A stretch of 64,000 nucleotides of DNA, from NCBI GenBank assembly GCA_030693235.1, contig JAUYBE010000006.1, positions 139,601-203,600 of the forward strand, given 5' to 3'. A program made the position numbers and the translations under genes. Shown here piece after piece: positions 5,437 through 61,345 of the stretch (the first letter of the stretch is position 1; every line of letters begins with the position of its first letter). This DNA is from a bacterium. Its GTDB lineage: Bacteria > Patescibacteriota > Minisyncoccia > UBA6257 > UBA9933. The notes beneath the pieces are model-generated. The model did no database searches. It was given only the letters and a program-made list of their open reading frames with translations, and was not told the DNA's origin.

Positions 5437-5508
5437 ATGTGTCATTGCGAACGAAGTGAAGCAATCTATATGTGAGATTGCCGCGGGCTTCGCCCTCGCA
5501 ATGACAGT
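5437..5508. repeat. family C palindrome GTCATTGCGA...TCGCAATGAC
   Basis: Arms gtcattgcgaacgaagtgaagcaatct / agattgccgcgggcttcgccctcgcaatgac. Lies between fusA and rplM. Confidence 0.7.
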
Positions 5509-29894: not shown

Positions 29895-30593
29895 ATGAAA
29901 ATTGATTACTGGCAAATTTTAAAAGCGACGTGGCCAATAGTAAAAGAGCTGTGGCCACTTTTGGTTATTCTTCTCGCCATTCTGATTATCAGATTATTTT
30001 TTTACTGGCTCGATTTAGAAATAAATAATTGGCGCATTAGACAAAAATTTGCAAAAGGCGAAAAATGGCGATCCGATCAAGATTTAATTCGATGGTTACG
30101 CGGTATGAAACCATCAGAATTTGAAGAATATATCGCTGATCTATTTCGGAGGCTTGGTTATAAAACGGAAGCAACTGGCGGATCGCATGATGGAGGAGTG
30201 GATGTAATAGCTGAAAGGGATGGTAAGAAACACTATATTCAATGCAAAAAGTATTTCTCGGAACATCAGGTAGGTTCTCCGGAGGTGCGGGAATTTTATG
30301 GAGCGATTGCTGATCATTTGGTAAATGGCGAGGCTTGGTATATTACAACTAATAAATTCACGCCCGAGGCAGAAAATTTCGCGAAAGATAAGCCAATTAT
30401 TCTTATTAACTCATTTGATTTAATTAAATATATTCATCAAGCAGAAAATAAAGGATTTGATAGTAAGCCCCAAAATGAAACAAGTTTAAAATGTCCCGAA
30501 TGCGGCGGCGTTCTTGTAGAACGAGATGGAAAATTTGGTAAATTTTTAGGTTGCTCAAATTATCCTAAGTGCGCGTATACGCAAAAGATTTAG
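29895..30593 (+). CDS. membrane-anchored Mrr-like restriction endonuclease domain fused to a C-terminal topoisomerase-type C4 zinc ribbon
   Basis: N-terminal TM helix. FRRLGY...GGSHDGGVDVIAE...YIQCKKY (PD-(D/E)xK Mrr_cat-like). CPECGG...CSNYPKC. Confidence 0.5.
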   Translation: MKIDYWQILKATWPIVKELWPLLVILLAILIIRLFFYWLDLEINNWRIRQKFAKGEKWRSDQDLIRWLRGMKPSEFEEYIADLFRRLGYKTEATGGSHDGGVDVIAERDGKKHYIQCKKYFSEHQVGSPEVREFYGAIADHLVNGEAWYITTNKFTPEAENFAKDKPIILINSFDLIKYIHQAENKGFDSKPQNETSLKCPECGGVLVERDGKFGKFLGCSNYPKCAYTQKI

Positions 30594-34552: not shown

Positions 34553-34822
34553 GTCTCTCCAGCGCGAAGGGTCGTTTAATTTTTTCCTTCTTTCTTCTTC
34601 AAATTCTTTTTTGGCGCGCACCACTCCGGTTGAATGATCAGATTCCGGAGCAAATTCTACTTTCTTTTTTGTTTCTATGGTTTCCTCGGGATCTTTTATT
34701 TCTTGAGGGTTTTTAAATTTTTCTTTTTCAAACATATTATAAAATACTTGAACGACCTTTATTATTTTTATATAATAACGCAAAAAGCGATTAACGTCAA
34801 CAAATATGGTATAATTATAATT

Positions 34823-35833
34823 ATGAAACTATCCATCGGTATTGTTGGTTTGCCGAATGTCGGCAAGTCAACGCTTTTTAAAATTTTAACCAAACAGGAA
34901 GTTAATATCGCCAATTATCCTTTTGCCACGATTGACCCGAATGTCGGGGTGGTGACAGTGCCGGACGAACGGCTGAAAAAATTAGCGAAATTAAGCAACT
35001 CTAAAAAAATCGTTCCGGCTATCGTAGAATTTTATGATATTGCCGGCCTGGTTAAAGGCGCGAACAAAGGCGAGGGTTTAGGCAATCAATTTTTAAGCCA
35101 TATCCGAGAAACAAACGCTATTATTCACATTGTTCGTTGTTTTAAAGCTTCAGAAATTATTCATGTTGAAAATGAAGTCAATCCTTTAAAGGATTTGAAA
35201 ATTATCAACACAGAATTGATTTTGAAAGATTTGGAAACCGTTGAAAAAAGATTTATCAGTCTTGAAAAAGAAATCAGAACCGGCGATAAACAGAAAATCA
35301 AAGATTTGGAAATCTTGAAAACAGTCAAAGAAAATTTAAATAAAAATATTTTGCCGATTAATTCGGGAGAAATCGCCGCCGAGCCGGCTGTAAAAGAATT
35401 GAATTTATTAACAGCCAAACCGCAGATTTATCTGTTGAACGGTGGCGAAGAAGATGTTGATTCGGAACTTAAAGAAAAAATTAAATCTTTAGGCGCCGAT
35501 TATTTAATCATTAATCTATCGACGTCCGACGTCGATAATATTGATAAGTTGATTAAAAAAGCTTATGAAATTTTAGGTTTAATCAGTTTCTTAACTACCG
35601 GCGAAGACGAGACGCGGGCTTGGACAATTAAAAAAGGCATCAAAGCGCCGCAGGCCGCCGGCGAAATTCATACGGATTTCGAAAAAAAATTCATTAAAGC
35701 AGAGGTGATTGAATGGAGCCGATTATTGGAAGTCGGAAGTTGGCAGCAGGCCAAGCAAAAGGGCCTTATTCGTTTGGAAGGCAAAGAATATATTATTCAA
35801 GATGGCGATGTCGTGGTGATAAAACATGGTTAG
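34823..35833 (+). CDS. ychF: ribosome-binding ATPase YchF (start placed at MKLSIGIVGLPNVGKST)
   Basis: G1 GLPNVGKST, G3 DIAGLV, TGS-like C-terminus. Confidence 0.85.
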   Translation: MKLSIGIVGLPNVGKSTLFKILTKQEVNIANYPFATIDPNVGVVTVPDERLKKLAKLSNSKKIVPAIVEFYDIAGLVKGANKGEGLGNQFLSHIRETNAIIHIVRCFKASEIIHVENEVNPLKDLKIINTELILKDLETVEKRFISLEKEIRTGDKQKIKDLEILKTVKENLNKNILPINSGEIAAEPAVKELNLLTAKPQIYLLNGGEEDVDSELKEKIKSLGADYLIINLSTSDVDNIDKLIKKAYEILGLISFLTTGEDETRAWTIKKGIKAPQAAGEIHTDFEKKFIKAEVIEWSRLLEVGSWQQAKQKGLIRLEGKEYIIQDGDVVVIKHG

Positions 35834-37497: not shown

Positions 37498-37908
37498 ATG
37501 GAAACAAATCAGCAAAATTTTGAACATAGTATTTTGGAAGCGGATATTGAGAGATTAAGCAAGGAAATCGCCGAAAAGCGAAATTTATTGGAGCATAAAA
37601 ATTTATCGGAACGAGAATTGATAAAAAAATCGCTTGAGCCGATGATTAGGCAAATACCCGTTAATAACCTGCAACCGACGACCGACGACCAACAACAAAT
37701 CAGTAATCAAGTTTTGCCAAACTATCTCAAAGATTCGCCATTAGAAATCAAGCTTCAGGTGGAAAAATTGATTTATTTAGCTTTTCATCATGGAATTATT
37801 AAAGTTGCCAAAGAAGCTCAAAAAAACGGCGGTTTTGTTTTAGACGCTTTTCACGACGCTTTGACGGATAAACTTCACGAGGAATTAAAAAAGAGAAAGT
37901 TGATATAA
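37498..37908 (+). CDS. hypothetical protein
   Basis: 136-aa ORF with no recognised motif. Immediately upstream of the large ATPase. Confidence 0.3.
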   Translation: METNQQNFEHSILEADIERLSKEIAEKRNLLEHKNLSERELIKKSLEPMIRQIPVNNLQPTTDDQQQISNQVLPNYLKDSPLEIKLQVEKLIYLAFHHGIIKVAKEAQKNGGFVLDAFHDALTDKLHEELKKRKLI

Positions 37909-37929
37909 TCGCGAATATTTACGAATTTG

Positions 37930-37998
37930 GAAGTGTCATTGCGAGGGCGAAGCCCGTGGCAATCTCATTAGATTGCTTCGCCTGCGGCTCGCAATGAC
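37930..37998. repeat. family C palindrome GTCATTGCGAGGGCGAAGCCC...GGCTCGCAATGAC
   Basis: One arm is near-identical to an arm of the 5437-5508 copy. Ends 9 nt before the ATG at 38008. Confidence 0.7.
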
Positions 37999-38007
37999 GA
38001 TATTATT

Positions 38008-40341
38008 ATGAATATTTATTTAATTTTAGGAATAGCCGCCGCCTTTTTTATTGTTTTTGTTTTATTTTTGATATTCAAAAATCTTCGCCAAAAACGGTTG
38101 GCGCAAGCTCTTAATTTAAAACTTCTTTTAATTCGTTTATCGCAAAAACAACTTAAAGATTTTTCCTCCGAAGGCAAATCGGGTTCGGATTGGAAGGACG
38201 AAATTAATCTTTCAGCCCAGCTTTTCGGAATTTTAGCCGGATTAAAATCGCCGTTTGTTTTTGAGACAGCGGTTCATCATATCGGCGAGGAAATTCATTT
38301 TTACTGCGCGGTGCCGAGAGAATCAATCGAATTTGTCAGCCGGCAAATCGAAGGTTTGTGGGAAGAAGCGTCTATTGAGCCGATCGACGATTATAATATT
38401 TTTAATTCCGCCGCCGGCGCCGCCACTTCCGGAGTTTATCTCAAACAAAAACTGTTTTACGCTTTGCCGATTCGCGCTTATGTTGAAGCCAATATTGACA
38501 CCTTCAGTCCTCTTTTAAGCGGACTTTCAAAAATCAATGAAATAGGCGAAGGCGCGGCAATTCAGTTATTAATCAGGCCTGCGCCATTATCGGCAAAAAA
38601 ATCGATTTTACAGATGATTGATAATCTTAAAAAGGGAGCAAAAATAGACGATATTCTTAAAGCCAACTCGCTCAAATTTAAAGACATTAAAAAAGCCGTT
38701 AATCCTGAAAAAGAAAAATTGGAAAGAGTGATCGACGATGAATCGATTAAGGCTCTGGAACTAAAAATTTCCAAGCCGCTTTTGTCGGTTAATTTAAGGG
38801 TTCTGGTTTCTAGCGCCAGTCAATACCAAACGGACGCTATTTTGGAAAGCATTGTCGGCGGTTTTTCGCAGTTCAGCGCGCCGCGCCGGAATGAATTAAA
38901 AATTATTAAGCCTCGAAATCCCAAAAACCTGATTTATCAATTCTCTTTCCGCGAATTCGACGACAGCCAATCAATGATTTTAAATACGGAAGAATTGGCC
39001 AGTTTATTCCATTTGCCGTCTTCAAGCACGGAAATTCCAAAAATTAAATGGCTTAAATCCAAAGAAGCCGTAAGCCCGCTGAATTTGCCGAAATCCGGAA
39101 TTTTAATCGGAGAAACGTCTTTCCGCGGCGAACGCAAGCCTGTTTATCTTACCGAAGACGACCGTAGACGGCATATTTATATCATCGGCCAGACCGGCAC
39201 CGGAAAATCAACTTTAATGACCAATATGGTCGTCGATGACATTAAAAACGGCAAAGGAGTCGCCATTATCGACCCGCACGGCGATTTGATTGAAAAAATT
39301 TTGGGCGTGATTCCCGAGGAGCGAGGCGACGACGTAATTATTTTCGACCCTTCGGATATTCGGCGGCCGCTGGGGATGAATATGTTGGAATATGATTTCA
39401 ACAAGCCGGAAGAAAAAACCTTTATCGTCAACGAAATGTTTAATATTCTGGACAAACTTTACGATATGAAAACCGTCGGCGGACCGATGTTTGAACAGTA
39501 TACTAAAAACGCGATTTTATTGTTGATGGAAGACGCAATTAACGAGCTCGCCACCTTAATGGATATTCCGCGAGTTTTTACGGATGTTGATTTTCGAAAT
39601 GAAAAATTATCGCGCATTAAAAATCCGGTAGTCATTGATTTTTGGGAAAAAGAAGCGGCTAAGGCAACCGGCGAGCATTCTTTGGCGAATATGGCGCCCT
39701 ATATTACTTCCAAATTCAACAATTTTATCGCCAACGATTACGTCAGGCCGATTATTAGCCAAACAAAATCAGCTTTTGATTTTAGAAAAGTGATGGACGA
39801 AGGAAAAATTTTATTGGTTAATTTGTCAAAAGGCAAAATAGGGGATATCAATGCCAATTTATTGGGAATGATTATTACTGGAAAAATTTTAATGGCGGCT
39901 TTAAGTCGGGTTGATACGCCGGAGGACCAACGCCGAGATTTTAATCTTTATATTGACGAGTTTCAGAATTTTACCACCGATTCAATCTCCACGATTTTAT
40001 CCGAAGCTCGAAAATACCGGCTTAGTTTGATAATGGCTCATCAGTTTATCGCTCAATTGACGGAAAAAATCCGCGACGCGGTTTTCGGCAATGTAGGTTC
40101 TATTATCAGTTTTCGGGTTGGGCCGACGGACGCGGAATTTTTAGTCAAACAATTCGCGCCGGTTTTTAACGAAAATGATTTGGTCAATATTGACAATTTC
40201 AACGCTTACGCCAAAATTCTCATTAACGGTCAGACTTCCAAGCCGTTTAATATTAAAACTTTACTGCCGGAAAAAGGCAATAAAGAAATAGGCGATAAAA
40301 TCAAAGAATTGTCTCGCCTGAAATACGGTAGCAAAATATGA
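38008..40341 (+). CDS. membrane-anchored TraG/TraD/VirD4-like (HerA/FtsK superfamily, DUF87-type) P-loop ATPase
   Basis: N-terminal TM helix. Walker A IIGQTGTGKST. IIDPHGDL. Walker B LYIDEFQNF. RKYRLSLIMAHQ. Confidence 0.5.
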   Translation: MNIYLILGIAAAFFIVFVLFLIFKNLRQKRLAQALNLKLLLIRLSQKQLKDFSSEGKSGSDWKDEINLSAQLFGILAGLKSPFVFETAVHHIGEEIHFYCAVPRESIEFVSRQIEGLWEEASIEPIDDYNIFNSAAGAATSGVYLKQKLFYALPIRAYVEANIDTFSPLLSGLSKINEIGEGAAIQLLIRPAPLSAKKSILQMIDNLKKGAKIDDILKANSLKFKDIKKAVNPEKEKLERVIDDESIKALELKISKPLLSVNLRVLVSSASQYQTDAILESIVGGFSQFSAPRRNELKIIKPRNPKNLIYQFSFREFDDSQSMILNTEELASLFHLPSSSTEIPKIKWLKSKEAVSPLNLPKSGILIGETSFRGERKPVYLTEDDRRRHIYIIGQTGTGKSTLMTNMVVDDIKNGKGVAIIDPHGDLIEKILGVIPEERGDDVIIFDPSDIRRPLGMNMLEYDFNKPEEKTFIVNEMFNILDKLYDMKTVGGPMFEQYTKNAILLLMEDAINELATLMDIPRVFTDVDFRNEKLSRIKNPVVIDFWEKEAAKATGEHSLANMAPYITSKFNNFIANDYVRPIISQTKSAFDFRKVMDEGKILLVNLSKGKIGDINANLLGMIITGKILMAALSRVDTPEDQRRDFNLYIDEFQNFTTDSISTILSEARKYRLSLIMAHQFIAQLTEKIRDAVFGNVGSIISFRVGPTDAEFLVKQFAPVFNENDLVNIDNFNAYAKILINGQTSKPFNIKTLLPEKGNKEIGDKIKELSRLKYGSKI

Positions 40342-40345
40342 CTAC

Positions 40346-40418
40346 GCCGGAGTAGCTCAGTTGGTAGAGCAATGCTTTCGTAAAGCAGAGGTCGCGAGTT
40401 CGAATCTCGCCTCCGGCT
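40346..40418 (+). tRNA. tRNA-Thr (anticodon CGU)
   Basis: GCCGGAG acceptor, GCTCAGTTGGTAGAGC D-arm, anticodon loop TTCGTAA, GCGAGTTCGAATCTCGC T-arm. Confidence 0.8.
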
Positions 40419-40419
40419 C

Positions 40420-41280
40420 ATGATTAAAAAAGCCATTATTCCGGTTGCCGGGTTAGGAACAAGATTTTTGCCGGCGACAAAAGCTCAGCCAAAAGAAATG
40501 TTGCCGATTATAGATAAGCCGGTGATTCAGTATTTGGTTGAAGAAGCGGTTAAATCGGGGATTATCGATATTATTTTTGTTACCGGACGAGGCAAGCGGG
40601 CGATTGAAGACCATTTTGATTACGCGCCGGAACTGGAATCCCGCCTGCTTCAAAAAAATAAAGAAGATGTTTTTAAAAAAGTGAGAGCGATTTCCGAGTT
40701 GGCGAATTTTGCTTATGTCAGGCAAAAATCGCCTAAGGGCGATGGCGATGCTTTGCTTTGCGCCGATCATTTAATTAACGATGAGCCGGTGGCCGTTCTT
40801 TTTGGAGACGATGTTGTTGACGGCAAAATGCCTTGTCTTTCGCAAATGATTAAAGTTTTTGAGAAATATAAAGATTGCGTAGTCGCTCTTGAAGAAGTGC
40901 CGAGACAGGAAGTTAAGCATTACGGCGTCGTTAAGGCGGTTAAAATTTCCGAACAAATTTTTGAAATTCAAGACATTATTGAAAAACCGAATCCCAAAGA
41001 AGCGCCGTCTAATTTAACCATTGTCGGCAAATATATTCTTATTCCCGAAGTTTTTGAGGAATTAAAAAAGATTAAGCAGATAGAAAAAGGGGAACTTAAA
41101 CTGGCTGACGCTTTAAAATCTTTATTAAAAAAACGTCCGATTTACGGATATAAATTTGAAGGCAAGAGATATGATTGCGGAAGCAAAATCGGTTTTTTGA
41201 AAGCAACAGTTGATTTTGCTTTAAAACACCCGGAAGTAAAAAAAGATTTTAAAAAATATTTAAAGAGTTTAAAAATATAA
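40420..41280 (+). CDS. galU: UTP--glucose-1-phosphate uridylyltransferase
   Basis: KAIIPVAGLGTRFLPATKAQPKEMLPIIDKP signature. Confidence 0.85.
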   Translation: MIKKAIIPVAGLGTRFLPATKAQPKEMLPIIDKPVIQYLVEEAVKSGIIDIIFVTGRGKRAIEDHFDYAPELESRLLQKNKEDVFKKVRAISELANFAYVRQKSPKGDGDALLCADHLINDEPVAVLFGDDVVDGKMPCLSQMIKVFEKYKDCVVALEEVPRQEVKHYGVVKAVKISEQIFEIQDIIEKPNPKEAPSNLTIVGKYILIPEVFEELKKIKQIEKGELKLADALKSLLKKRPIYGYKFEGKRYDCGSKIGFLKATVDFALKHPEVKKDFKKYLKSLKI

Positions 41281-41323
41281 AATTATTGATTTTTCAATAA
41301 ATCTGTGTTAATATTTGATTCAT

Positions 41324-42386
41324 ATGAACGAAAATCCATTACAACGACTCGAAGAATTGAAAGAGCTTGCCCGGCGCTTAGCCGGGCGGCTTTGACGTTG
41401 AGACAAAGAGAAATCGCGTTAAAGAGATTGAATACGAATTTTCCGACCCTGATTTTTGGAAGAACAGGGAAATTGCCGACGCTAAAATAAAGGAAGTCGG
41501 CGAGTTAAATGAATTAGTAAAAAAATTTGATGAAATTGAAAAAAAATTGGCGGTTCCGTTAGATAGGCAGGCGGAAATATTACTTAAAGAAATTCAATCC
41601 AAACTTCGCAAGCTGGAAATTGAAAATTTATTTACCGGAAAATACGACAAGGGCCCGGCGATTGTTTCAGTTTTTGCCGGCGCCGGAGGACAGGATGCCG
41701 AAGATTGGGCCGGAATGCTTTATGAGATGTATGTGAAATTCAGCGAACAACGCGGCTGGAAAACAAAAATTATTCACGAAAGTTTTGGCGATTTTCAGTC
41801 AAGAACCGGCCGTCATCTGATTAAAGATATTGCTTTGGAAATTAAAGGCGATTACGCTTACGGTTATTTGAAAAAAGAAGCCGGCGTTCATCGCTTGGTA
41901 AGAATTTCGCCTTTTTCAGCGGAAAAGAAAAGGCATACTTCTTTCGCGTTGGTTGAAATTTTGCCGGAATTGAGCGAAATAAAAGAAGACGAATTCAAGA
42001 TTCCCGAAGAAGATTTGAAAATTGAATTTTTCCGTTCCAGCGGTCCGGGCGGCCAGAACGTCAATAAAGTTGAAACTGCCGTAAGAATAGTCCATACTCC
42101 GACCGGTTTATCGGCGAGCTCCCAAGTCGAACGCTCCCAATCCCAGAACCGCGAACGGGTTATGAATTTGCTTAAAGCCAAATTGATAAAACTAATGGAA
42201 GAAAGCCGGATAAAAGAATTAGGCCAGTTGCGAACCAAAGTAAAGCCGGAATGGGGGAATCAAATCCGTTCTTACGTGCTTCATCCGTATAAAATGGTAA
42301 AAGACCACAGAACAGGCGTTGAAACAAGCCGGGCAGAGGAAGTTTTAGAAGGAGATATTGATATGTTTGTGGAAAGTGAGGTATAA
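41324..42386 (+). CDS. prfB: peptide chain release factor 2 with programmed +1 frameshift (frame 0 41324-41392, then +1 frame 41394-42386)
   Basis: MNENPLQRLEELKELARRLAGRL then CTT TGA C at 41390-41396. The downstream frame has SPF and GGQ motifs. The listed ORF 41305..41490 is a frame artefact. Confidence 0.85.
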
Positions 42387-59531: not shown

Positions 59532-61301
59532 TGGTTGCTTTCTAAGGCGGACGTTTTGCGGAGTGATTTCCAAATATTCGTCATCCGCCATAACTTCAAG
59601 GCCGCGTTCAATCGTAAGCGTGAAAGGCGGCGTAAGTTCTATGGCTTCGTCATTGCGCGAAGAACGCGTATTTGTAAGTTGTTTGCCTTTTATCGGATTC
59701 ACTTTCATTTCTTCTCCTTTGGAAGTGTTGCCGATAACCATTCCTTCGTACACTTCGGCGCCGGGACCGATATAAAGCGCGCCGCGTTCTTGCAAATTCC
59801 AAAGCGCGTAGCCCAAAGCTTTGCCGGCCGACATTGAAATCATTGAACCGGTCGGTTTTTTGTTAATATCTCCGGCATAAGACCTAAATTCGATGAAGCG
59901 GGACGAAAGAATCCCTTCACCTTTAGTGTCTATGACAAATTGGTTCCGATACCCGAGAAGTCCCCGCGTCGGACCTTCGAACGAAAGTCGCATAGTCGCG
60001 TCGCGTTGAAACATATTTTTTAAAACAAAGCCGCGGTTGCTAAGACGCTCAATCACCACGCCTTGATATTCTTTCGGAATGTCCGCGAGCGCTTCTTCAA
60101 ACGGTTCGTGTTTTGCTCCGTCTATTTCGCGAATAATGACTTGCGGCTGGGAAACCTGAAGTTCATATCCCGCCCGCCGCATATTTTCAAGCAAAATAGC
60201 GATATGAAGTTCGCCGCGTCCGGAAACGCGGAAATTGTCCGGTGATGAAAAATCAACTTTTAACCCGACATTTACTTCAAGTTCGCGTTCAAGATATTCG
60301 CGCAATTGTCTTGAAGTCACGTATTTCCCCTCGCGTCCGGCGAACGGAGAATTATTCACCAAAAAATTAAGGCAAATTGTCGCTTCGTCAATCGCGATCG
60401 CCGGCAACGATTCAGCATTGGAATCAGTTGTCACGGTTTCACCGATATCGATATTGGGAAGACCGGCAATAAGAATAATATCGCCAGCCACCGCTTCACT
60501 CGCTTCTATTCTTTCCAAGCCGTTAAAAGTGAAAATCTTCGCGATTTTACCTGAACGAATTTCTTTATTTTGTTTTTTTATAAAAACATTCGCGCCTGCC
60601 GTCGCGACGCCTTCATATACGCGTCCTATCGCGAGACGCCCCATAAAATTATCGTATGCTAAATTAAACGGTTGAAATCGTAAAGGTTTTTGCGAAAGCG
60701 CTTCGGAAGACGAAGACGGTATGTGATTAAGAATCGTATCAAGAAGGGGAGTGAGGTCTTTTGATTCATCGGTAAGTTTGAGTTTCGCGATGCCTTCGCG
60801 ACCTATTGAATAAACAACGGGGAAATTCGCCTGCTCGTCGCCCGCGCCAAGTTCAAGAAAAAGTTCAAGCGTTTGTTCTTCCGTCAACGCCGGATCGGCG
60901 GCCGGCTTGTCGATTTTATTGATTACCACAATCGGCTTAAGGCCGAGTTCGAGAGATTTTTTTAACACGAAACGGGTTTGCGGCATCGGACCTTCTTGAC
61001 TGTCCACCACCAAAAGCACAGAATCGATGGAGCGCAAAACGCGTTCCACTTCCGAACCGAAATCGGCGTGGCCCGGCGTGTCCACGATGTTAATTTTAGT
61101 CACGGCTCGTCCCGAATCAGCCGAAGGATAAAAAACAGCCGCGTTTTTTGAATAAATCGTAATACCGCGCTCAAGTTCAAGCGCGTTGGAATCCATAGAA
61201 ACGCCCTCCTTAGCAACGCCCGTCTGGCGCAAAAGCGCGTCGGTCAAAGCAGTTTTGCCATGGTCAACGTGAGCGATTATAGCGATATTTCTGATTTCCA
61301 T
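59520..61301 (-). CDS. typA: translational GTPase TypA/BipA
   Basis: IRNIAIIAHVDHGKTAL; 593 aa with EF-G-like domains. Confidence 0.9.
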   Translation of the reverse strand: MEIRNIAIIAHVDHGKTALTDALLRQTGVAKEGVSMDSNALELERGITIYSKNAAVFYPSADSGRAVTKINIVDTPGHADFGSEVERVLRSIDSVLLVVDSQEGPMPQTRFVLKKSLELGLKPIVVINKIDKPAADPALTEEQTLELFLELGAGDEQANFPVVYSIGREGIAKLKLTDESKDLTPLLDTILNHIPSSSSEALSQKPLRFQPFNLAYDNFMGRLAIGRVYEGVATAGANVFIKKQNKEIRSGKIAKIFTFNGLERIEASEAVAGDIILIAGLPNIDIGETVTTDSNAESLPAIAIDEATICLNFLVNNSPFAGREGKYVTSRQLREYLERELEVNVGLKVDFSSPDNFRVSGRGELHIAILLENMRRAGYELQVSQPQVIIREIDGAKHEPFEEALADIPKEYQGVVIERLSNRGFVLKNMFQRDATMRLSFEGPTRGLLGYRNQFVIDTKGEGILSSRFIEFRSYAGDINKKPTGSMISMSAGKALGYALWNLQERGALYIGPGAEVYEGMVIGNTSKGEEMKVNPIKGKQLTNTRSSRNDEAIELTPPFTLTIERGLEVMADDEYLEITPQNVRLRKQPLAR

Positions 61302-61315
61302 ATGATTTTATAATT

Positions 61316-61345
61316 TTGTCATTGCGAGCGAAGCGAAGCAATCCC
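61316..61345. repeat. family C element GTCATTGCGAGCGAAGCGAAGCAATCC (single arm/short form) upstream of typA
   Basis: Direct reading. Shares the GTCATTGCGAG...GCAATC core with copies at 5437 and 37930. Confidence 0.65.

Follow-up and report, generated by a model that had tools for sequence, protein, structure and literature searches.

A predicted VirB4-VirD4 hybrid ATPase and its small upstream partner in a conserved two-gene operon of Patescibacteria

We analyzed two adjacent genes in a 64,000-nt stretch of the patescibacterial contig JAUYBE010000006.1 (called the window here, at its full length; all positions are in window numbering unless a locus of the form Lnnn is named). The genes encode a protein of 136 aa and a membrane-anchored ATPase of 777 aa, and together they are a vertically inherited chromosomal two-gene operon and a core feature of the Patescibacteria. 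According to structure models, the ATPase is a hybrid that combines a transmembrane (TM) anchor, a VirB4-like N-domain and a VirD4-like nucleotide-binding domain with an all-alpha insertion. On balance, it is probably a domesticated coupling-type motor, most plausibly serving a type IV secretion system (T4SS) encoded elsewhere, and the small protein would be the adaptor or regulator of this motor. The gene pair and its parts are located as follows.

37498 to 37908, + strand: small partner gene, 136 aa, referred to as type 1 (list of open reading frames)
38008 to 40341, + strand: membrane-anchored ATPase, 777 aa (list of open reading frames, Pfam, AlphaFold2 model)
38014 to 38082, + strand: N-terminal TM anchor, residues 3-25 (hydropathy; helix 2-35 in the AlphaFold2 model)
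38113 to 39042, + strand: N-domain PF26449/DUF8128, residues 36-345, with a predicted fold like that of the VirB4 N-terminal domain
39085 to 40278, + strand: P-loop ATPase domain like that of coupling proteins, residues 360-757 (Pfam, profile search, Foldseek)
39187 to 39213, + strand: Walker A
39406 to 39798, + strand: all-alpha insertion, residues 467-597 (AlphaFold2 model)
39946 to 39972, + strand: Walker B
40006 to 40044, + strand: R/K...AHQ sensor region

Both open reading frames (ORFs) and the tRNA-Thr that follows them were found where an earlier reading of the letters alone (the original prediction) had placed them, and so were the single N-terminal TM helix and the ATPase motifs quoted there. 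The hydrophobic helix (residues 3-25) is followed by the basic stretch KNLRQKR, and the bulk of the ATPase should thus be cytoplasmic. The motifs are GQTGTGKST (Walker A, residues 394-402), IIDPHGDL (420-427), DEFQNF (Walker B, within residues 647-655) and RKYRLSLIMAHQ (668-679). The G and K of Walker A, D650 and E651 of Walker B, R668 and K669, and H678 and Q679 were invariant in 42 aligned relatives, while the key catalytic residues were also invariant in a separate alignment of 24 relatives; judging from these motifs, the protein is predicted to be an active enzyme. Profile searches bore out the proposal that its core resembles that of type IV coupling proteins (T4CPs). The Pfam families T4SS-DNA_transf, DUF87, TrwB_AAD_bind and TraG-D_C all scored above their gathering thresholds within residues ~373-710 (e.g., PF02534 with 40.4 bits against a cut-off of 20.1, PF10412 with 35.3 against 20.5 and PF12696 with 25.2 against 22), and the core belongs to the TraG/VirD4/HerA (FtsK-HerA) superfamily.

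The original prediction had also proposed a non-ATPase N-domain of roughly 330 aa. Such a domain is present at residues 36-345 and corresponds to PF26449/DUF8128, according to the precomputed annotation of the identical protein P0001 and of all listed relatives; its VirB4-like fold had been missed and became visible upon structure prediction. As far as we could find, DUF8128 is not mentioned in the literature. The full-length AlphaFold2 model had a mean predicted local distance difference test score (pLDDT) of 83.4, and the N-domain modeled alone had a pLDDT of 80.8 and a predicted TM-score (pTM) of 0.82. In Foldseek searches against the Protein Data Bank (PDB), the best match of the full-length model was TrwK, the VirB4 protein of R388, which was colinear over ~860-880 columns (E 4e-16), while TrwB covered the ATPase half only (TM-score 0.67 normalised to the target). 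For the N-domain, all 14 matches with E <= 1e-3 were TrwK chains. No P-loop protein other than VirB4 appeared in the N-domain lists, which indicates that the match concerns the non-ATPase N-terminal domain of VirB4; in its model, the domain appears to have the VirB4-type N-terminal fold. At the sequence level, the family profile retrieved TrwB (1e-7), DotL (8e-4) and HerA (4e-3) from the PDB sequences and no VirB4, and a profile of the N-domain matched none of them, so that the link to VirB4 is one of fold only. Furthermore, in the AlphaFold2 model an all-helical block (residues 467-597) lies between the core strands and may be equivalent to the all-alpha domain of T4CPs. Since fold favours VirB4 for the N-domain and sequence favours T4CPs for the ATPase, the modeled protein is best described as a hybrid.

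The comparison with recognised T4CPs (VirD4/TraG/TrwB of R388, DotL and Cagbeta) is in line with this description. The ATPase halves are alike with respect to Walker A and B, the sensor Gln and the all-alpha insertion, N-terminal membrane anchoring is common to both, and TrwB is the best sequence-level PDB relative of the window ATPase. However, canonical T4CPs have a short N-terminal domain with two TM helices and no cytoplasmic N-domain of ~310 residues, and they are encoded together with relaxase or T4SS genes. The window protein has instead a single TM helix (none in the fused relatives described below), which is separated from the nucleotide-binding domain by the 310-residue VirB4-like N-domain, as well as a small dedicated partner, and its gene lies on the chromosome among housekeeping genes; no pair of TM helices immediately adjoins the nucleotide-binding domain. 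NCBIfam T4CP equivalogs stayed far under their cut-offs, the best being TIGR03743 with 51.4 bits (cut-off 366), while CD1115 reached 45.7 (250). The protein thus falls outside the strict limits of the T4CP family and, as discussed below, of the VirB4 family as well.

The ATPase had been regarded as standalone and the 136-aa ORF upstream of it as uncharacterised. The second statement holds insofar as profiles from Pfam, PHROGs, PADLOC, NCBIfam and PDB yielded no credible relative, but the role of the small protein as a conserved partner had been overlooked. It is a cytoplasmic protein without TM helix or signal peptide, and it consists of two conserved parts, an N-terminal helix and a C-terminal helical domain, joined by a variable linker; within the helical domain, an invariant D-A-F-H-D-A motif was evident from the alignment. 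On contigs shared with the ATPase, 250 type-1 homologues with 55-90% identity were found. In a survey of 88 fetched loci with an iterated profile, the type-1 gene immediately preceded the ATPase gene in the same orientation in 38 loci, with -4 to 183 nt between the two (commonly a 4-nt overlap or a spacer of 1-15 nt), and in 26 others the type-1 sequence was found inside the ATPase ORF, fused at the N-terminus. The profile matched nowhere else in these loci.

The fusions were also examined with a profile built from stand-alone small proteins only, which matched residues ~20-145 in all 26 long ATPases (900-970 aa). A broad HHalign comparison of the small protein with the fused extension gave a probability of 97.8% (E 8.6e-13, 120 columns), while none of 546 reversed or shuffled sequences matched. 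One fused sequence occurs identically on 30 contigs. A TM helix was present in 57 of the 58 non-fused full-length relatives and in none of the 26 fused ones; the fused domain takes the place of the helix, and the two are mutually exclusive. In protein P0306 (977 aa, L104/L105), a two-helix membrane hairpin separates the type-1 small domain from the N-domain and ATPase that follow, an order that puts the small domain in the cytoplasm. The gene for P0306 directly precedes the S14-S8-L6-L18-S5 ribosomal protein operon.

In addition, unbiased clustering of 1,528 neighbouring ORFs from 86 loci revealed that only small upstream proteins are positionally tied to the ATPase, namely type 1 in 33 loci and a second type in 18, all other recurring neighbours being housekeeping genes. 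The type-2 partner (150-216 aa) is variable at its N-terminus, and the motif WL.IIPGVNKFFLEQEAKIKTD is conserved at its C-terminus; it is encoded directly upstream of the ATPase in L029-L041, L057, L068, L072, L073, L077, L079, L081 and L085; in 14 type-2 loci a conserved uncharacterised protein of 232 aa is encoded ~300 nt downstream. A type-3 partner of 145 aa (L103, 4552-4989) is rich in Pro and Gln at its N-terminus and has a short helical region at its C-terminus. Neither type 2 nor type 3 was homologous to type 1 (HHalign 0.1%). In general, therefore, ATPase genes of this family are preceded by a gene for a small helical protein that differs between lineages. From its position and its fusions, the window's small ORF appears to be a real partner of the ATPase, and it may well bind it physically. 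The layout of a small gene followed by an ATPase gene recalls virB3-virB4, although the small partners described here, unlike VirB3, have no TM helix.

The ATPase is widespread in the phylum. More than 7,500 protein clusters matched it; the best 120 of these are 64-100% identical, and among them those carrying a phylum-level name are nearly all labelled Patescibacteria. Identity is 41-92% across hundreds of Patescibacteria genomes, and a scan of species-representative genomes confirmed the gene in at least 598 cases (598 of the 600 candidate stretches listed). Relatives at 61-72% identity keep the order of a divergent PMT_2 gene, the small ORF and the ATPase, the closest of them also the tRNA-Thr. 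By comparison, 2.9 million viral contigs yielded only 12 distant relatives, nearly all of them ATPase-only. The proteins of viral contigs L089-L096 (IMG/VR) are ATPase-only forms of 396-582 aa that are 32-42% identical to the ATPase domain of the Candidate Phyla Radiation (CPR) proteins, to which they are much closer than the Bacillus phage homologues are. In a recent survey, VirD4-like T4CP homologues were reported in 2,918 of 3,035 Patescibacteria genomes, almost none of them close to virB4, and exaptation was raised there as a possibility (Quinonero-Coronel et al., 2025; PMC12102498). These homologues, as well as SEML1_0142 and SEML1_0293 of Southlakia epibionticum (Wang et al., 2023; PMC10633639), share with the window ATPase the NCBI names, the Pfam layout and a dispersal distant from virB4, and they almost certainly belong to the same family. 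Both studies treat the genes only as T4CP matches or hypothetical proteins.

Outside the phylum, homologues with both DUF8128 and the ATPase were found in Bacillus phages and Bacillus-group plasmids, at 21-29% identity over ~85% of the protein; for the plasmid homologues the E-values were 3e-18 for the N-domain and 1e-44 for the ATPase. An example is WP_345805471.1 on NZ_CP154917.1, annotated as "DUF87 domain-containing protein". In the plasmid operons, the DUF8128-ATPase is followed by a "replication-relaxation family" protein, conjugal transfer proteins, TcpE and a VirB4-like ATPase, and thus it occupies the position of the coupling protein. We rejected an assignment of these plasmids to the pLS20 type, as the T4CP of pLS20 itself is a canonical VirD4 with two TM helices. 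Among phages, gp27.4 of SPO1 is a two-domain homologue that adjoins gp27.3. The latter has been interpreted informatically as a MobC-like relaxase, and deletion of the equivalent operon in phage 0305phi8-36 had no laboratory phenotype (PMC3357382). A phmmer search revealed no match between SPO1 gp27.3 and the plasmid "replication-relaxation" proteins. The plasmid and phage homologues (SPO1 gp27.4, 0305phi8-36 orf201, phrog_5156) share the architecture of the window protein, but they reside on mobile elements next to a relaxase-type gene, in plasmids also next to conjugation genes, and in contrast to the window protein they have neither a TM helix nor a type-1 partner.

Genetic data are available for S. 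epibionticum, in which two genes share this layout (Wang et al., 2023; PMC10633639). SEML1_0142 (1,019 aa, P-loop domain at 381-800) was essential at all three time points of transposon sequencing (Tn-seq; ES/ES/ES at T0/T1/T2), and SEML1_0141 (139 aa), located 12 nt upstream on the same strand, was growth-defective and then essential (GD/ES/ES). The second gene, SEML1_0293 (921 aa), was non-essential throughout (NE/NE/NE) and has no small ORF upstream. The metagenomic locus L103 matches SEML1_0141-0145 in gene order, strands and sizes up to gyrB. Its ATPase, which has an N-terminal TM helix, an N-domain at residues 44-360 and an ATPase domain at 383-809, shares 42% identity with the window protein across 697 residues. 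By synteny via L103, at least one member of the family, together with its small upstream gene, is thus very probably essential in S. epibionticum, the sole Patescibacterium for which Tn-seq data exist. Furthermore, comparison of Table S3 of Quinonero-Coronel et al. (2025; PMC12102498) with Table S1 of Wang et al. (2023; PMC10633639) indicates that the "non-essential Southlakia t4cp homologue" of the literature seems to be SEML1_0293.

With regard to function, a coupling-type role is suggested by the two-domain homologues that lie beside relaxases in the Bacillus plasmid conjugation operons and in SPO1. By analogy with TrwB, VirD4 and VirB4, the ATPase would form a ring at the membrane's inner face and use ATP to recruit or push a DNA or protein substrate towards a membrane channel; the small helical protein would work at its N-terminal, membrane-proximal end, and the ATPase would couple to the Patescibacteria T4SS encoded elsewhere. 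We infer ring assembly, partner binding, the nature of the substrate and T4SS coupling from these comparisons. The general proposal of a secretion or DNA-translocation function of CPR type, already put forward in the original prediction, remains the best one, and a T4SS-coupled role is its single most likely form.

Several observations weigh against this interpretation. In none of the 86 CPR loci was a T4SS channel, relaxase or substrate gene linked to the ATPase, so that coupling to a T4SS would follow from homology only. The excess of ~500 genomes with T4CP-like genes over the 2,417 with VirB4 hints at a role independent of the T4SS (Quinonero-Coronel et al., 2025; PMC12102498). Moreover, one of the two Southlakia homologues, SEML1_0293, is non-essential (Wang et al., 2023; PMC10633639), the counterpart of the window gene may be either the essential or the non-essential paralogue, and the Southlakia T4SS is described as having no recognisable coupling protein. 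The relationship between the N-domain and VirB4 comes from AlphaFold models with no sequence-level support, and just one of five N-domain models, the best one, was confident, although the full-length run agreed with it. Finally, HHalign comparisons of the fusion with narrow profiles were weak (5-14% probability) before the broader test succeeded.

Next in rank, as a possible but rather unlikely alternative, is a T4SS-independent translocase that works alone or with another channel as a core cellular motor. Such a motor might serve FtsK-like DNA handling or segregation, nucleic-acid uptake or export resembling that of the archaeal Ced system, or the export of proteins or envelope components. 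The lack of linkage to virB genes and the genome counts mentioned above agree with it, as do the essentiality by synteny of a family member in Southlakia, where comEC is dispensable and no relaxase exists, the fused forms with no membrane anchor, and weak matches at the level of the P-loop to CedD, HerA and FtsK. PMT_2 glycosyltransferases, GtrA and LTD surface proteins also recur nearby in the window's lineage. However, the closest sequence relatives of the ATPase are T4CPs, and not FtsK or HerA. FtsK_SpoIIIE (PF01580) reached 16 bits against a cut-off of 24, and neither the FtsK gamma domain nor a polytopic N-terminus is present; the matches to CedD and to HerA (NF040819, 18 bits against a cut-off of 970) are confined to the P-loop and extend neither over the full-length HerA profile nor to a HAS-barrel N-domain. 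The relaxases adjoining the two-domain homologues outside the CPR also argue against this alternative. As for PMT_2, it neighbours the ATPase in only 11-15 of the 86-88 loci, which amounts to lineage-level synteny, and it was rejected as a functional partner.

A wider proposal, which we put forward as speculative and doubtful, would see here a phylum-wide two-component machine, essential in at least one species and independent of the virB cluster, that pairs a "VirB4-VirD4 intermediate" ATPase with an interchangeable small adaptor. This machine might be the missing substrate receptor of a T4SS that has no relaxase or a separate translocase for exchange with the host, and it might preserve the ancestral architecture that gave rise to coupling proteins with no N-domain.

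The remaining explanations are unlikely. A divergent bona fide VirB4, acting as the assembly ATPase of a second, unrecognised T4SS, is very improbable in spite of the predicted fold of the N-domain. TIGR00929 (VirB4_CagE) gave 23.8 bits against a cut-off of 643.1, no match to PF03135/CagE_TrbE_VirB was found in the ATPase, and the family profile detects no VirB4 sequence; similarly, the window protein has no detectable sequence similarity to VirB4 proteins such as TrwK of R388 or TraE/TrsE/PrgJ. Moreover, the window gene lies outside a virB cluster, no VirB3, VirB6 or VirB8 gene was among the neighbours in the 86 loci, and the partner is soluble and not a membrane protein like VirB3. Patescibacteria possess, in any case, a distinct and well-defined clade of true VirB4, encoded elsewhere with its own cluster.

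Even less probable is an anti-phage defence ATPase of the Mad8 or HerA type, for which PADLOC returned mad8 (3.6e-17) and several HerA models (1e-5 to 1e-8), with an Mrr-type nuclease encoded 8 kb upstream. These matches are limited to the ATPase core, and Mad8 is one gene of an eight-gene operon (mad1-8) of which the other genes are absent; we therefore rejected the mad8 lead as a shared ATPase fold only. In addition, no nuclease, methylase or Sir2 partner adjoined the ATPase in the 86 loci, no nuclease of the HerA-associated type was found among the neighbours there, and the phylum-wide identity of 41-92% is unlike that of defence islands. The Mrr-type gene (window 29895-30593) encodes a 232-aa fusion of a restriction endonuclease domain with a topoisomerase-type C4 zinc ribbon, and it lies among housekeeping genes.

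The least probable explanation, one of two options raised in the original prediction, is that an integrative or conjugative element inserted at a tRNA hotspot and left a remnant here. Conjugative elements typically carry ATPases of this family, the window ATPase has distant homologues on plasmids and phages, and a tRNA follows it, but the conservation of the gene pair in the same housekeeping context in relatives and the lack of flanking repeats refute a mobile origin. The tRNA is located as follows.

40346 to 40419, + strand: tRNA-Thr, anticodon CGT (ARAGORN and Rfam)

It begins 5 nt past the stop codon of the ATPase. A search of the window for att-like repeats, using k-mers of at least 11 nt from the tRNA, found no recurring k-mer of 13 nt or more and nothing that repeats the 3' end of the tRNA; a single 12-mer from the anticodon arm was the one stretch that recurred, at about chance level. 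No integrase, relaxase, T4SS channel or mating-pair formation (Mpf) gene is present within ±15 kb of the ATPase gene, which bears out the earlier statement that no other T4SS gene is nearby, and GC content stays uniform throughout the region. The window shares a tRNA-Thr(CGT) behind the ATPase with L001, L009 and L011 only, while 77 of 82 loci have no tRNA at this position; in a family that is near-universal in the phylum, the tRNA-Thr is an adjoining housekeeping gene outside the module and no integration junction.

The region 40341-40422 is extremely compact. The tRNA-Thr has no encoded CCA, and its 3' end is abutted directly by the ATG (40420) of a galU-type nucleotidyltransferase gene. This compaction suggests that the ATPase, the tRNA and galU form a polycistronic transcript that is separated via tRNA processing. 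The glycosyltransferase and galU neighbours named earlier were both recovered, as PMT_2-type and GalU-like genes, next to YchF, RF2 and FtsEX; the flanks within ±15 kb are all housekeeping and also include SecY, Adk, Map, GreA, two aminoacyl-tRNA synthetases, UMP kinase, Obg and DnaX. The prfB gene for RF2 (window 41320-42386) has a classical programmed +1 frameshift site, CTT TGA C, at 41390. The first 23 codons (MNENPLQRLEELKELARRLAGRL) are read in one frame, the remainder (GFDVETKRNR...) continues in the +1 frame, and for this reason the mechanical ORF list gives a truncated ORF of 279 aa with a TTG start. The YchF ORF (window 34634-35833, 399 aa in the mechanical list) starts ~65 codons too early; its GTPase domain begins at residue 68, YchF of L001 has 337 aa, and the true start is probably the ATG of 'MKLSIGIVGLPNVGKST'.

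The spacer of 99 nt between the small ORF and the ATPase gene holds one further element.

37935 to 37998, no strand: palindromic repeat element, 64 bp (inverted-repeat and RNA-fold analysis)

This palindrome, which the original prediction had assigned to a family C, is real and has related copies in the window. It has perfect outer arms of 11 nt and an inner 8-nt stem, and its RNA fold has an energy of -35.4 kcal/mol (z = -3.0). A related full copy lies at 5441-5505 and partial copies at ~59649-59670 and 61318-61343. The family has the layout GTCATTGCGAG...GCAATC...GATTGC...CTCGCAATGAC and is dispersed over the 64 kb in two full copies of 64-65 bp and at least two half copies. The spacer (37909-38007) has no T-tract and no predicted + strand terminator. 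In most relatives, no more than -4 to 15 nt lie between the two genes. The palindrome has therefore been inserted into an operon whose genes are otherwise tightly coupled, a point not noticed earlier, and it lies outside the protein machine.

The family itself is already known, being present in databases (under an NCBI name that refers to a T4SS DNA-binding domain and as DUF8128 in Pfam) and counted in the 2025 survey. The VirB4-type N-domain, the small partner with its Rosetta-stone fusions and the probable tie to the essential Southlakia pair appear to be new. The latter would also correct the impression, given by the literature, of a dispensable Southlakia T4CP, as the two paralogues appear to have opposite Tn-seq calls. 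Patescibacteria account for a large share of bacterial diversity and live as epibionts, and their T4SS is essential in the one species studied genetically, although neither a coupling protein nor a relaxase has been recognised for it. The window ATPase adds a data point on the relationship between VirB4 and VirD4. We thus believe that this near-universal "orphan T4CP" is a testable candidate for feeding substrates to the Patescibacteria secretion apparatus, or else may represent a new translocase.

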